DNA of 64,000 bases from Escherichia coli (GTDB taxonomy: Bacteria > Pseudomonadota > Gammaproteobacteria > Enterobacterales > Enterobacteriaceae): assembly GCF_003018255.1 (NCBI RefSeq), contig NZ_CP027440.1; one strand, given 5' to 3'. Shown here piece after piece: positions 11,615-56,388 of the stretch (position 1 is the stretch's first letter; each line of letters starts with the position of its first letter). The position numbers and the translations under genes are program-made. The notes below the pieces were generated by a model. That model was not told the DNA's origin. It saw nothing but the letters and a program-made list of their open reading frames with translations, and searched no databases.

Positions 11615-11671
11615 TTTGGTGACAAAACTCACAAAAGACACGCGTTTAATTTGCGATACGAATTAAATTTT
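11615..11671. promoter_or_regulatory. nagE-nagBACD divergent control region: CRP-like site and NagC operator palindrome
   Basis: GGTGAcaaaacTCACA (about 11618..11633) fits TGTGA-N6-TCACA; TTTAATTTGCGATACGAATTAAATT (about 11645..11671) is a near-perfect palindrome of the kind NagC binds. Confidence 0.5.
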
Positions 11672-22974: not shown

Positions 22975-24294
22975 TTAACCGTGTTTATTTTTCAGTTCAA
23001 AGCGTGGTGAGACCAGACCATACAGTGTCCAACCGAGGAAGGTCACGATGGAACCGTATAGCATGGCTTCTTCCCCGGATGAGTACAGCGCATAAAAGCT
23101 GTACATCGCGCCAACAAAAGCAACAAAGTTTGCAACTTTCGCTTTTGAGGGGGGCACATTAGCGACCTTCTGAATAATGACTAATGCCGCCATTGACAGA
23201 ATATACGGAATGATATTGGTCACCACGGCCAGGTTAACCAGCACGTTGAACTGACTGTTCAGCGACGGGCTAATGGTCATCAGTGATAATCCGCTCTGGA
23301 TGATGACAATGGTCAGCATTCCCTGTACTGGTGCATCGACTTTGCTCACACGGGAGAAAATTTTCGGGAAGTACCCTTCATCGGCAGAAGATTTAAACAC
23401 CTGGGCAATGGTGAACTGCCAGCCAAGCAGCGAACCGCAGCAGGACATCACCATCAGCGCCATAATGACTTTACCCACTTCCGGCGTGAACATCTGCGCG
23501 AAGGCCAGACCAAATGGTGCCGTTGAATTTGCCAGCTCCATATTTGGCACAATCCCGGCAATCACGTTGGTGGAGACGATATAAATCACCGCCGCACCTA
23601 ACGTACCGCCAAGAACTGCAATCGGCACGTTACGTTCCGGGTTTTCAACTACTTCGGCGTTGGCACAGGCTGACTCCAGACCGAGGAAAGCCCACAACGT
23701 CATGGCGATGGAAGAACCTACAGCGCTAAAGAACGGCACATGGTGCGGGTTCCATGAGTTAGCGTATAGCGTCGGGCTAAACCAGAACCAGCCGATAATG
23801 CACAGACCGACGACCGGAATAATGACCCCCCACACAGTAATGCTACTGATTTGCCCGGTAATGCGCGCACCACCAAAGTTAGCCACGGTACAAATCCACA
23901 GCACTCCGATGGTCGCAAGACCAATCTGCACTGGCGACAAACTCGCGCCGAGCAGTTCGGTGCCGTAACCAACCGCCGAAATAGCAATCGCGACGTTAGC
24001 AATCAGCAGCGAGACACCGTAGGTGTAGTTCGCCATAAAGTTCCCGGATTTACCGAAAGCATACTCCGCATAACCGCCCATACCGCCTGATTTACGGCTG
24101 AACATACCGCATTTTGCGAATGCCCATGCCAGTGCCATTGAGCCTACGGCTGTCACCAGCCAGGAGATAATTGAGATTGTCCCAACTTCGGCAAGCTTTG
24201 TCGGCAGCATGATGATACCGGAGCCCATCATGTTGACCATCGTCAGTATGGTTAACTGAACGACGCCCATCTTATTCGATTTAGCCTGACTCAT
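22975..24294 (-). CDS. potE: Putrescine/ornithine antiporter
   Basis: 439-aa APC-family transporter ORF MSQAKSNKMGVVQLTILTMVNMMGSGIIMLPTKLAEVG... Confidence 0.95.
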   Translation of the reverse strand: MSQAKSNKMGVVQLTILTMVNMMGSGIIMLPTKLAEVGTISIISWLVTAVGSMALAWAFAKCGMFSRKSGGMGGYAEYAFGKSGNFMANYTYGVSLLIANVAIAISAVGYGTELLGASLSPVQIGLATIGVLWICTVANFGGARITGQISSITVWGVIIPVVGLCIIGWFWFSPTLYANSWNPHHVPFFSAVGSSIAMTLWAFLGLESACANAEVVENPERNVPIAVLGGTLGAAVIYIVSTNVIAGIVPNMELANSTAPFGLAFAQMFTPEVGKVIMALMVMSCCGSLLGWQFTIAQVFKSSADEGYFPKIFSRVSKVDAPVQGMLTIVIIQSGLSLMTISPSLNSQFNVLVNLAVVTNIIPYILSMAALVIIQKVANVPPSKAKVANFVAFVGAMYSFYALYSSGEEAMLYGSIVTFLGWTLYGLVSPRFELKNKHG

Positions 24295-26489
24295 AATTTT
24301 TCCCCTTTCAACAGGGTGCTTTGCGCATCACGAGGCTTGATGACATAGCACCAAACTTGCTTACGACCATCATGTTCTTCGATATAGACACCCTGCAGCT
24401 CTGGTGCAAAACCTGGCAGCAGGTTGATCCCTTCTTCCAGAGCGCTGAAGTAACGCAGAACAGCACCACCCCAGATTTCACCCGGAACAACACACAGCAC
24501 ACCCGGAGGATAAGGAAGCGCACCTTCGGCAGCGATACGGCCTTCTGCATCCGGCAGACGAACCAGCTCCACTTCATCGCGTAAATAGGCGTAGTTGGCT
24601 TCTTGTGGATTCATGCTTACGCGTGGGAAGTGTTCCTTACGGAACATCTCTTTTTGCAGTTGTTTCACGTTGTGACGGGCATACAAATCATGCATTTCCT
24701 GACACAACTGACGCAGGGTATAACCGGTGTAGCGCTCTTCATGCTGTTTGTAGATGGAAGGCAGTACTTCTGATAATGGCGCGTCGGACTCAAGCAGTTT
24801 TTCGAAGCGTACCAGCAGAGCAACAAGTTGCTGAAGTTTGGCCATATCTTCTGCCGGAGTCAGCAGAAAGAGGATGGAGTTAAGATCGCATTTTTCCGGC
24901 ACTACGCCATTTTCGCGCAGGAAGTTAGCAAGAATCGTCGCGGGTACACCGAACGCTTCATATTCGCCGTTACGTGCATCAATACCTGGGGTTGTCAGCA
25001 ACAGTTTGCACGGATCGACAAAGTATTGATTCTCTGCATAGCCTTCAAAAGAATGCCAGTGCTCACCTGGTACAAACTGGAAGAAGCGCAGATCAACCGC
25101 AATTTGCGCCGTTTCATACGACTGCCAGGGTTTACCATCCACCAGTTCAGGTACGAATGGACGAATATGCTGACAGTTATCGAGGATTAGTTTGCGGGCA
25201 TTAATGCCATTTACCACACAATCCATCCACATATTACGACCGCTGACACCTTCATGCATTTTGGCGTTGATATCCAGTGCGGCAAACAGCGGATAGAACG
25301 GGCTGGTGGAGGCATGCATCATAAAGGCGTTGTTCATGCGTTTGTGCGGTACATAACGCTGTTGCCCTTTGATATGGCTGTCTTTTTTATGGATTTGTGA
25401 AGTCTGGGAAAAACCAGCCTGCTGTTTATGCACAGATTGCGTAACCAGAATACCCGGATCGTTCTCATTAAGATCCAGCAACAGTGGTGAACAGTCCGCC
25501 ATCATCGGGATAAACTGCTCATAGCCGACCCATGCGGAGTCAAAGAGGATGTAGTCACACAGATGACCAATTTTATCCACCACCTGACGGGCGTTATAAA
25601 TCGTACCGTCGTAAGTGCCTAGCTGAATAACGGCGAGGCGGAAAGGACGAGCCTCTTTTGCCCGCTGCGGTGCGAATTCCGCGATCAGTTCACGCAGGTA
25701 ACTTTCTTCAAAACAGTGAGCGTCAATACCACCGATAAAACCATACGGGTTACGTGCGGTTTCCAGATAAACCGGTGTCGCGCCAGCCTGTAGCAACGCT
25801 CCGTGGTGGTTAGATTTGTGGTTATTGCGGTCAAACAGCACCAGATCACCCGGTGTCAGCAGGGCGTTTAAAACCACTTTGTTAGAAGATGAAGTGCCAT
25901 TTAAAACGAAGTATGTTTTATCGGCATTAAACACTTTTGCCGCATGTTGCTGTGCAATGCATGGCGCGCCTTCGTGAATCAGCAGATCGCCCATCGCTAC
26001 GTCGGCGTTGCACAAGTCAGCACGGAACAGCGCCTCACCAAAGTATTCCACAAACTGATTCCCCGCGGGATGGCGACGGAAAAATTCGCCGCCCTGATGA
26101 CCGGGGCAATCAAACGCGCTGTTACCCTGATTGACATAATCGACCAGTGCGCGGAAGAAGGGCGGGCGCAGTTGCGTTTCATAATGGCTGGCTGCGGTTT
26201 CTAACTGACGACCATAAAATTCTCGTCGCGATTCGCAATTCTCAAAGACACCCGAAATACGGGGCAAATACTCTGCGGGTACACGTTCTTGATTTTCAGT
26301 AGCAATAAATACCGGGATGCCATAACCCGTGGCATCGATTTCATCGAGTTTTCCGCGTGTAACATCGTTGAGCGATAAAACTATTGCCGCCACATCGATA
26401 TTACTGTTTTCATTAATATAGATACATTCTCGCTGCGTGGTAAAACAGTCCGGGCAAGAATCACTAACCGCAATTTTTAATTTTGACAT
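24291..26489 (-). CDS. speF: Inducible ornithine decarboxylase
   Basis: Track ORF 24291..26567 trimmed to the ATG at 26489: MSKLKIAVSDSCPDCFTTQRECIYINENSNIDVAAIV..., 732 aa; its stop overlaps the potE start (ATGA). Confidence 0.93.
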   Translation of the reverse strand: MSKLKIAVSDSCPDCFTTQRECIYINENSNIDVAAIVLSLNDVTRGKLDEIDATGYGIPVFIATENQERVPAEYLPRISGVFENCESRREFYGRQLETAASHYETQLRPPFFRALVDYVNQGNSAFDCPGHQGGEFFRRHPAGNQFVEYFGEALFRADLCNADVAMGDLLIHEGAPCIAQQHAAKVFNADKTYFVLNGTSSSNKVVLNALLTPGDLVLFDRNNHKSNHHGALLQAGATPVYLETARNPYGFIGGIDAHCFEESYLRELIAEFAPQRAKEARPFRLAVIQLGTYDGTIYNARQVVDKIGHLCDYILFDSAWVGYEQFIPMMADCSPLLLDLNENDPGILVTQSVHKQQAGFSQTSQIHKKDSHIKGQQRYVPHKRMNNAFMMHASTSPFYPLFAALDINAKMHEGVSGRNMWMDCVVNGINARKLILDNCQHIRPFVPELVDGKPWQSYETAQIAVDLRFFQFVPGEHWHSFEGYAENQYFVDPCKLLLTTPGIDARNGEYEAFGVPATILANFLRENGVVPEKCDLNSILFLLTPAEDMAKLQQLVALLVRFEKLLESDAPLSEVLPSIYKQHEERYTGYTLRQLCQEMHDLYARHNVKQLQKEMFRKEHFPRVSMNPQEANYAYLRDEVELVRLPDAEGRIAAEGALPYPPGVLCVVPGEIWGGAVLRYFSALEEGINLLPGFAPELQGVYIEEHDGRKQVWCYVIKPRDAQSTLLKGEKL

Positions 26490-26746
26490 TTTCCATCTCT
26501 TTATTTTGGGTAATAGCAGGTCCTCAATTTCTCGAATGAGAAATCGATCGTGCCGGAAAAAAAGCAAAGTTACCCCGCTGATAAATTAATCAGAAGTTTG
26601 CTTTTTTCAGAATGCAGAAACCCTTATCAGTCCGGTGGCTGATAATACAAGGGTTAACAGAGAATGAGCACTGCGGAATACAGGCATATGCCTGTAATAC
26701 AGAGAGTCAGGAAGACCTGTACGCTGAAGTGCCCTTAGTCGGTAGA

Positions 26747-26851
26747 CTAACGGGCATTGAAGAAGTGAAAGTCGAAGCTATTGCGATGAGCAAACTTCAT
26801 AATATGAGTTGTCCGCCTTATATGGGGCATAGTGCGGCTGTTATTTTCCAT
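26747..26851 (-). CDS. speFL: speF leader peptide SpeFL (34 aa, ornithine-sensing arrest peptide)
   Basis: Hand translation of the minus strand from ATG 26851 gives MENNSRTMPHIRRTTHIMKFAHRNSFDFHFFNAR followed by TAG, about 260 nt upstream of speF and absent from the ORF track because it is under 60 aa. Confidence 0.8.
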   Translation of the reverse strand: MENNSRTMPHIRRTTHIMKFAHRNSFDFHFFNAR

Positions 26852-27021
26852 TTAATTTACCTTTCCTGATGTGAATGAAGGTGAAGGTATTCTATCCAGG
26901 AAATACGGTTGAACTGTGAAGGTGATCAATAAAAAATGATCAATCTTAATTTATTTAATGATGAGCTTTTTACTCAGTAATATAAAATATTGAATTGTTA
27001 TTTTTGTGTGTTGTTTAAGAT

Positions 27022-27050
27022 AAAAAGCCGTATTTATTATTACGGCTTTA
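27022..27050. terminator. Terminator downstream of kdpE (end of the kdpFABCDE operon)
   Basis: A5, GCCGTA-tttattat-TACGGC hairpin, then TTTA; it sits 35 bp after the kdpE stop. Confidence 0.6.
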
Positions 27051-27084
27051 ATTAATAAAAGGCAGGATGTATTGAAATTAATAT

Positions 27085-27762
27085 TCAAAGCATAAACCGA
27101 TACCCAATACCGGTTTCAGTAATGAAATGGCGAGGCCGGGCCGGGTCCTGTTCCAGTTTTTGTCGCAGATGCCCCATATAAATACGCAAATAATGACTGT
27201 GTTCGACCGCGTTTGGCCCCCACACCTGGTTAAGGAGCTGGCGCTGGGTGAGCACTTTTCCCGCATTATTAAGCAACACTGCCAGCAGGCGGAACTCAAT
27301 CGGGGTGAGATGCACCTCTTCCTCGCCCCGATGGATCACACGAGCTGCTAAATCGACGGTAACATCGGAAAATTTCACCAGCGGATCGGGCGCGGCGGTG
27401 GCGGAGTGGCGACGTAAAGCGACGCGCAGACGGGCCTGCAATTCGCCAATGCCAAACGGCTTACTCAGATAATCATCCGCTCCGGCATCCAGCGCGGCGA
27501 TTTTGTCGCTCTCTTCGCTACGTGCGGAAAGCACAATCACCGGCACCGCGCTCCACTGGCGCAGGTCGCGGATAAACTCAATCCCATCACCATCGGGCAG
27601 GCCGAGATCGAGAATAATCAAATCTGGCTTACGGGTAGCCGCTTCCAGCAAGCCGCGTTGCAGCGTTTCGGCCTCAAAGACGCGCATACCGTCGCCTTCC
27701 AGCGCCGTGCGCAGAAAGCGACGAATAGCCTGTTCATCTTCAACAATCAGAACGTTTGTCAC
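27085..27762 (-). CDS. kdpE: Two-component response regulator KdpE (OmpR family)
   Basis: 225-aa ORF (M)[30 protein letters not shown]...; the start is GTG at 27762, overlapping the kdpD stop (GTGA). Confidence 0.93.
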   Translation of the reverse strand: MTNVLIVEDEQAIRRFLRTALEGDGMRVFEAETLQRGLLEAATRKPDLIILDLGLPDGDGIEFIRDLRQWSAVPVIVLSARSEESDKIAALDAGADDYLSKPFGIGELQARLRVALRRHSATAAPDPLVKFSDVTVDLAARVIHRGEEEVHLTPIEFRLLAVLLNNAGKVLTQRQLLNQVWGPNAVEHSHYLRIYMGHLRQKLEQDPARPRHFITETGIGYRFML

Positions 27763-55680: not shown

Positions 55681-56388
55681 TTAAGGTCTCCTTAGCGCCT
55701 TATTGCGTAAGACTGCCGGAACTTAAATTTGCCTTCGCACATCAACCTGGCTTTACCCGTTTGTTATTTGGCTCGCCGCTCTGTGAAAGAGGGGAAAACC
55801 TGGGTACAGAGCTCTGGGCGCTTGCAGGTAAAGGATCCATTGATGACGAATAAATGGCGAATCAAGTACTTAGCAATCCGAATTATTAAACTTGTCTACC
55901 ACTAATAACTGTCCCGAATGAATTGGTCAATACTTCCACACTGTTACATAAGTTAATCTTAGGTGAAATACCGACTTCATAACTTTTACGCATTATATGC
56001 TTTTCCTGGTAATGTTTGTAACAACTTTGTTGAATGATTGTCAAATTAGATGATTAAAAATTAAATAAATGTTGTTATCGTGACCTGGATCACTGTTCAG
56101 GATAAAACCCGACAAACTATATGTAGGTTAATTGTAATGATTTTGTGAACGGCCTATACTGCCGCCAGGTCTCCGGAACACCCTGCAATCCCGAGCCACC
56201 CAGCGTTGTAACGTGTCGTTTTCGCATCTGGAAGCAGTGTTTTGCATGACGCGCAGTTATAGAAAGGACGCTGTCTGACCCGCAAGCAGACCGGAGGAAG
56301 GAAATCCCGACGTCTCCAGGTAACAGAAAGTTAACCTCTGTGCCCGTAGTCCCCAGGGAATAATAAGAACAGCATGTGGGCGTTATTC
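55681..56388. promoter_or_regulatory. gltA-sdhC divergent intergenic control region
   Basis: 708-bp AT-rich spacer between divergent TCA-cycle operons; it holds the divergent promoters and, from the literature, the sdhC leader targeted by small RNAs. Individual sites were not resolved. Confidence 0.5.

Follow-up and report, generated by a model that had tools for sequence, protein, structure and literature searches.

The promoter of the speFL-speF-potE operon of Escherichia coli carries a conserved 16-bp CRP-type site centred near position -41, and the most likely binder of this site is cAMP-CRP, a reading to which we would give a probability of roughly 70%. The site is located at 26915-26930, on the minus strand, in the stretch of 64,000 nucleotides analysed here, referred to below as the window. 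This predicted CRP site is apparently undescribed before, and the promoter is otherwise ordinary. Little is firmly established about how transcription of the inducible ornithine decarboxylase/antiporter operon is controlled, and a conserved class II CRP-type site provides a concrete and easily tested hypothesis for what drives its promoter. The initial annotation had pointed to short direct repeats upstream of speFL as possible binding sites for an activator of the operon. An activator-type site does lie in the speFL promoter region, but its units are not periodic direct repeats.

Layout of the locus

The locus is K-12-like, and the list of open reading frames places potE (22975-24294), speF (24291 to about 26489), speFL (26747-26851) and kdpE (27085-27762) all on the minus strand. 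The short open reading frame at 26747-26851 (MENNSRTMPHIRRTTHIMKFAHRNSFDFHFFNAR) is annotated as the leader peptide SpeFL in identical or near-identical E. coli records, and corresponds to the 34-codon ornithine-sensing leader described in the literature (bioRxiv 10.1101/604074). The interval 26852-27084 covers the entire 233-bp spacer from the kdpE stop to the speFL start, which is also 233 bp long in MG1655, and it serves speFL-speF-potE as promoter and 5' UTR on the minus strand. Its G+C content of 26% bears out the earlier description of a strongly AT-rich block. The sense-strand anatomy of the speFL promoter reads ...GATTGATCATTTTTTATTGATCACCTTCACAGTTCAACCGTATTTCCTGGATAGAATACCTTCACCTTCATTCACATCAGGAAAGGTAAATTAAATG. 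An E-value search of Rfam over 26300-27300 matched no family.

At its upstream end, the spacer contains the intrinsic terminator of kdpE, which had been placed at 27022-27050 and was recovered by a hairpin scan at 27024-27049 on the minus strand. It is composed of a 9-bp stem (AAAGCCGTA / TACGGCTTT, running from 27049 to 27024) followed by a T-run, and lies 35 nt past the kdpE stop. Another hairpin arrangement is present on the other side of speFL, in the speFL-speF leader at 26545-26600 on the minus strand, where an 11-bp inverted repeat (AAAAAAGCAAA...TTTGCTTTTTT) surrounds a further hairpin, CTGAT-TAATTT-ATCAG, with a T-run after it. The segment 26579-26563 within this leader was flagged as terminator-like by the scan. 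The published work on Salmonella saw no intrinsic terminator in the Salmonella leader.

The CRP-type site and the core promoter

The 16-bp site at 26915-26930 reads TGTGAAGGTGATCAAT on the plus strand and ATTGATCACCTTCACA on the sense strand, and was delimited with a CRP matrix and by its conserved register. On the sense strand it forms the inverted repeat ATTGA-TCACCT-TCACA (26930-26915), which combines two elements that had been listed as members of separate direct repeats. The proximal TGATCAAT (26923-26930) supplies the promoter-distal half-site (sense ATTGA, followed by the spacer bases TCA) and includes a GATC. The upstream copy of GTGAAGGT (26916-26923) supplies the promoter-proximal half-site (sense TCAC) together with spacer. 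A sense-strand run of six T residues (26931-26936, minus strand, positions -49 to -54), whose length is polymorphic within E. coli, flanks the site.

The site is situated 20 nt upstream of a -10 hexamer, TAGAAT (26889-26894, minus strand), which matches the consensus at five of six positions and is the block of highest conservation. Primer extension in Salmonella detected a single start, with the AUG of orf34 (speFL) at +32 (PMC6386406). Transferring this 31-nt leader to E. coli puts the start at the A of 26882 on the minus strand, exactly 7 nt after TAGAAT, and in S. enterica subsp. arizonae the placements of +1 based on the -10 hexamer and on the leader coincide. With a start at 26882, the centre of the site (26922.5) falls at about -40.5, i.e. 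at the position of a class II activator; the class II norm is -41.5, and the E. coli start used in this calculation was placed by means of the -10 hexamer and the Salmonella mapping. A consensus scan of 26852-27084 found no sigma-70 -35/-10 pair, as is expected of an activator-dependent promoter, and the combination of a weak or absent -35 with a good -10 is the one found at class II promoters. TTCACA was considered as a -35 hexamer and discarded, as its spacer would be 20 bp.

The CRP matrix was symmetric and was built from 150 16-mers taken from Table S3 of a CRP genomic SELEX study (PMC3105977). The speFL site scores 12.3 bits with it, compared with a training median of 11.1, and ranks third among 63,985 positions of the window. 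The only two positions that outscore it are the published CRP sites of nagB/nagE and gltA/sdhC, both members of the training set; these top matches, at 11618-11633 and 56079-56094, serve as an internal positive control. The E. coli site departs from the CRP consensus in its promoter-distal half-site, which is TTGA and not GTGA, so that the G preferred by CRP at position 5 is lost. Matches to the CRP consensus with up to two mismatches are at chance level across the window (25 versus 26 expected), and so are matches to the FNR consensus with two mismatches. With plain consensus counts at chance, a match in a single genome would by itself be unconvincing.

Conservation across Enterobacterales

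The comparative evidence is decisive for the assignment of the predicted site to the CRP type. A protein search of genome contigs with SpeF returned 80 loci; in about 55, tblastn placed speFL ahead of speF. The 260 nt preceding speFL were scanned with the CRP matrix in 49 Enterobacterales promoters, and in every one the best match is followed, after exactly 20 nt, by a TAnAAT-like hexamer. The motif [G/T]TGA-N6-TCAC is present in this exact register in each of the 49, with scrambled flanks. The CRP score is at least 11.1 bits in 90% of 50 promoters (these 49 plus MG1655). Serratia, Hafnia, Buttiauxella, Cedecea, Yersinia and Edwardsiella have the palindrome in its clean form, GTGA-N6-TCAC, as in CGTGACTAACGTCACA and AGTGATAAATATCACG. 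For Serratia, Hafnia, Buttiauxella, Yersinia and Cedecea, the flanks are unalignable, and conservation peaks only on GTGA, on TCAC and on the -10 hexamer. At position 18, where CRP has C and FNR has A, C is found in 48 of the 49 orthologs and A in none. Position 5 is a G in 14 of 20 promoters from outside the Enterobacteriaceae and a T in 21 of 29 from the Enterobacteriaceae.

Conservation of the repeats in other enterics had been put forward as a check on their function. It is the CRP-type register that is held throughout the Enterobacterales, whereas the two GTGAAGGT copies are not conserved jointly and the TGATC pair, formed by the cores of the two TGATCAAT copies, is confined to the Enterobacteriaceae.

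A related arrangement is found in Shewanella. The five Shewanella speFL promoters examined carry TATGAC-N4-GTCATA or TAAGAC-N4-GTCATR located 19-20 nt before TATAAA, that is, the architecture is retained and the half-site is different.

Published evidence on the regulation of the operon

Several studies bear on a role for CRP. A crp mutant of Proteus mirabilis is defective in ornithine decarboxylase activity, and RNA-seq of this mutant gave log2 changes of -3.0 for speF (8-fold less transcript) and -2.0 for potE, next to which the known CRP-activated genes ptsG and treB appear in the same table (PMC5544767). The site in the P. mirabilis speFL promoter scores 17 bits on the CRP matrix and is in the same register. 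The cAMP-CRP genomic SELEX table contains no peak at the speFL promoter (PMC3105977). The target labelled 'kdpE' in that table was considered as a possible speFL promoter signal and set aside, its site being at 723360, within kdpD. For E. coli and Salmonella, a literature search turned up no paper in which speF depends on crp or cAMP. A Salmonella promoter fusion gave strong activity at 17 h of growth in glucose minimal medium, a result that is uninformative on this point and that does not look obviously CRP-limited.

Other regulators have been connected with the operon. Weak NtrC binding was seen at the E. coli operon by ChIP, and a direct regulator that would account for acid induction was still lacking in 2017 (PMC5217608). 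Repression by OmpR has been described in E. coli, supported by a gel shift of a fragment with 384 bp of upstream DNA (PMC5686162), and ArcA activates the operon in H. influenzae. CRP does not account for low pH and anaerobiosis, the signals classically known to induce the operon.

A possible second regulator at the TGATC pair

The second copy of TGATCAAT is located at 26937-26944 (about -55 to -62), and the two copies are separated by AAAAAA, as had been noticed at the outset. Its GATC is 14 bp from that of the proximal copy. This spacing of exactly 14 bp to an upstream GATC is shared by 22 of the 29 Enterobacteriaceae and by none of the 20 other Enterobacterales; kinship among the 29 genomes inflates the first of these counts. 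The clade that has the pair is also the one in which the adjacent half-site switched from GTGA to TTGATC. One explanation is that the two TGATC cores form a site, overlapping the distal half of the CRP-type site, for a second regulator, which would relay an acid or anaerobic signal either as a co-activator or as a competitor of CRP, and which could act in addition to CRP. Further conserved blocks upstream, together with the gap in knowledge about acid induction mentioned above, speak in its favour. However, the spacing between the two GATC sequences ranges from 12 to 15 bp within Escherichia, along with the length of the T-run, the distal GATC is lost in strain E69 and in E. albertii, and the TGATC pair was matched to no known factor motif. 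Taken as a second CRP site, the distal 16-mer scores -4.1 bits on the CRP matrix and was rejected. The T-run and the AT-rich DNA between -49 and -62 could simply help DNA bending or the docking of the C-terminal domain of the polymerase alpha subunit. The distal TGATCAAT may be either a second-regulator site or AT-rich DNA of this kind, and we are doubtful of the former, although it is the competing explanation that fares best.

The region further upstream, at 26945-27020 on the minus strand (about -63 to -138), is AT-rich and was delimited from an anchored conservation profile and from the alignment of E. coli alleles. Its blocks are partly conserved in Enterobacteriaceae, and the anchored profile places additional conserved blocks as far upstream as about -120. 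Three blocks, GACTAATTATTTCTG, ATATGCATAA and AACAAAACAGCATTTT, are kept within this region by Enterobacteriaceae, and only partly by the K-12-type allele. Sigma-54, IHF, Fis, ArgR, GAD-box, NsrR, Fur, H-NS and LysR-type motifs, compared by eye with their consensus sequences, fit these upstream blocks poorly. A broader proposal would unite the TGATC pair and the AT-rich blocks to about -120 as the operator of a further regulator or as a Dam-methylation-sensitive switch, which would overlap the CRP-type site and supply control by low pH or anaerobiosis. The Dam variant is conceivable since both TGATC cores are GATC sites. This proposal is somewhat less probable than a second regulator at the pair itself, and it is put forward as speculation.

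FNR and ArcA as candidate binders

The initial annotation had placed the repeats in an operon induced by acid and anaerobiosis, and had suggested a comparison with CRP, FNR and ArcA matrices. CRP came out of this comparison as described above, and the two anaerobic regulators did not. FNR acting near -41.5 in anaerobic activation is a competing reading of the site at 26915-26930. It would explain the reported anaerobic induction of the operon at low pH (PMC11434309). Moreover, E. coli, Citrobacter and Salmonella carry a perfect TTGAT half-site, in a sequence that matches TTGAT-N4-ATCAA at 8 of 10 positions, and the sites of Proteus, Kluyvera, Mangrovibacter and Shimwellia reach 14-18 bits on an FNR matrix. 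This matrix was derived from 63 ChIP-bound sites (Table S6 of PMC3688515). On it, however, the E. coli speFL site scores 5.3 bits and the weakest ChIP-bound site 12.0, a value that only 16% of the orthologs attain. The C that predominates at position 18 is likewise not the base of an FNR site, and neither speF nor kdpE is mentioned anywhere in the FNR ChIP-seq paper or in its 15 supplements, including the genome-wide predicted sites (PMC3688515). Binding of FNR is on this evidence improbable, more so than either proposal based on the TGATC pair.

The site can also be compared with hybrid CRP/FNR sites such as that of ompW (TGTGATTTAAATCAAT), which is both a CRP SELEX site and an FNR ChIP site. 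As in ompW, there is one half-site of each type, and the two sequences have both arms in common. The speF site differs in its low FNR score and in that no FNR ChIP peak has been reported for it. Its score is brought down by the spacer and by the bases at positions 10 and 14.

As for ArcA, a search for its box (direct TGTTA repeats 11 bp apart) gave only two poor matches in or touching the region, at 26839 and 26996 on the plus strand, each with two mismatches. Across the window, a single count gave 60 such matches compared with 39.9 ± 6.6 expected. None of the mismatch counts for CRP, FNR or ArcA is relied upon for the assignment of the site. With neither the FNR nor the ArcA matrix lending support, the suggested link to anaerobiosis is unsupported by the sequence.

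Repeats and chance

The other direct repeat proposed at the outset, a tandem GTGAAGGT, is not one: there are two copies, at 26881-26888 and 26916-26923, which are 35 bp apart, and the unit that is truly in tandem is the hexamer TGAAGG (26876-26887). The repeats of the spacer were compared with those of 2000 shuffles that preserve dinucleotide composition. The 233-bp region contains 6 exact non-overlapping 8-mer pairs, compared with 1.97 ± 1.89 in the shuffled sequences (P = 0.057), and 3 pairs whose members are at most 40 nt apart, compared with 0.59 ± 1.02 (P = 0.059). TGATCAAT occurs 5 times in the window, and 2.55 occurrences are expected. Since the excess of repeats is borderline (P≈0.06), the significance of these elements lies in their conservation and not in their repetition. 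That all the repeats arose by chance in AT-rich intergenic DNA and play no part in regulation, as these borderline values and the failure of the GTGAAGGT pair to be conserved might suggest, is very improbable, because the bases of the CRP-type site and of the -10 hexamer are nearly invariant over about 50 species and two E. coli alleles whose surroundings are scrambled. As judged from sequence, the chance reading holds for the GTGAAGGT copy at 26881-26888 and is contradicted for the proximal elements.

The copy at 26881-26888 (-6 to +2) is included in a lineage-specific tandem, ACCTTC-ACCTTC (26877-26888). It is not conserved: MG1655 has GTGAAGAT in its place, reading ATCTTC at -6 to -1, where the bases of other genera bear no relation to it. 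It is an unconserved coincidence over the transcription start, of which only the transcribed ACCTT seems to matter.

The 5' end of the transcript

The speFL 5' UTR spans 31 nt (26852-26882, minus strand). Its first five bases, ACCTT (+1 to +5, 26878-26882), can pair with the AAGGT of the Shine-Dalgarno stretch (26859-26863). Folds of single sequences support such a pairing between the 5' end and the Shine-Dalgarno sequence, with weak stems of -3 to -6 kcal/mol. The conserved transcribed sequence, which is ACCTTCA, GCTTTCA or TTTCC, is complementary in each species to that species' own speFL Shine-Dalgarno purine stretch. The first five to six transcribed bases co-vary with it between genera in most species, with ACCTT facing AAGGT, CTTTCA facing TGAAAG and TTTCC facing GGAAA. 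When the arms were swapped between species in a permutation test, the native pairings of 5' and 3' arms were more stable than the swapped ones (p = 0.007). RNAalifold predicted zero pairs on the speFL 5' UTRs, a null result attributable to variable loops that misalign the arms. Taken together, these comparisons suggest a small 5'-terminal hairpin in the speFL mRNA, which could possibly affect mRNA stability or the translation of speFL.

Proposed mechanism and relation to known systems

With cAMP-CRP as the preferred binder of the site, the operon might work as follows. cAMP-CRP would bind at about -41, where it would stand in for the missing -35 element and recruit RNA polymerase by direct contact. 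Transcription would start at 26882, and the transcript would open with the short hairpin and speFL. Rho termination would then be blocked by a published step, the arrest of ribosomes on SpeFL in response to ornithine (bioRxiv 10.1101/604074, PMC6386406). The operon would be on when glucose is absent or exhausted, and the low-pH and oxygen inputs may act via upstream elements or after transcription start.

The proposed promoter resembles the class II cAMP-CRP promoters galP1 and melR. Like them, it has a 16-bp inverted repeat of the TGTGA-N6-TCACA type over the -35 position, no recognisable -35 and a good -10, the distance from the site to the -10 being fixed in all speFL orthologs. It differs in that its centre is at -40.5 (from an inferred start) and not at -41.5, and in that its distal half-site is TTGA, which is FNR-like. 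Furthermore, the speFL site is a predicted CRP site and is missing from the published SELEX screen.

The tnaCAB operon combines a CRP-activated promoter with TnaC/Rho attenuation. The layout proposed for speFL would be the same, with an activator responding to carbon status followed by a leader peptide on which ribosomes stall in the presence of the substrate, so that Rho does not terminate transcription. In speFL, by contrast, the CRP layer is a prediction, the ligand is ornithine and there is an extra control by pH. If CRP does drive the promoter, the operon would be tied to carbon status, which fits the classical decarboxylase test, positive once the small amount of glucose has been consumed. 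It would also parallel the tna logic, and it would not surprise a specialist.

Variation within Escherichia

The kdpE-speFL spacer is dimorphic in E. coli. Among 5,426 complete genomes, 1,699 carry the K-12-type allele studied here and 3,333 an O157-type allele. The two alleles are mutually scrambled, and their kdpE terminator hairpins are non-homologous. Nevertheless, both E. coli alleles, E. coli strain E69 and E. albertii retain TTGATC..CTTCACAG, TGGATAGAATA and ACCTTCA, against a spacer that is otherwise scrambled. The adjacent kdpE is about 90% identical between alleles (26735-27084 compared with loci L002, L084, L005 and L004). The dimorphism resembles an old haplotype that arose by recombination or replacement.

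Two annotation and structural variants were also noted. O157-type genomes carry, over the speFL promoter and start codon, a CDS of 44 amino acids that PGAP calls a 'hypothetical protein' (3728-3862 in L002, 249-383 in L084); it is probably a spurious call. Finally, in strain E04, speFL and the kdp side are missing immediately upstream of speF, their place being taken by IS1A and by unrelated genes (for a DUF1436 protein, a SymE-family toxin and a primase), so that speF is left there with neither promoter nor leader.
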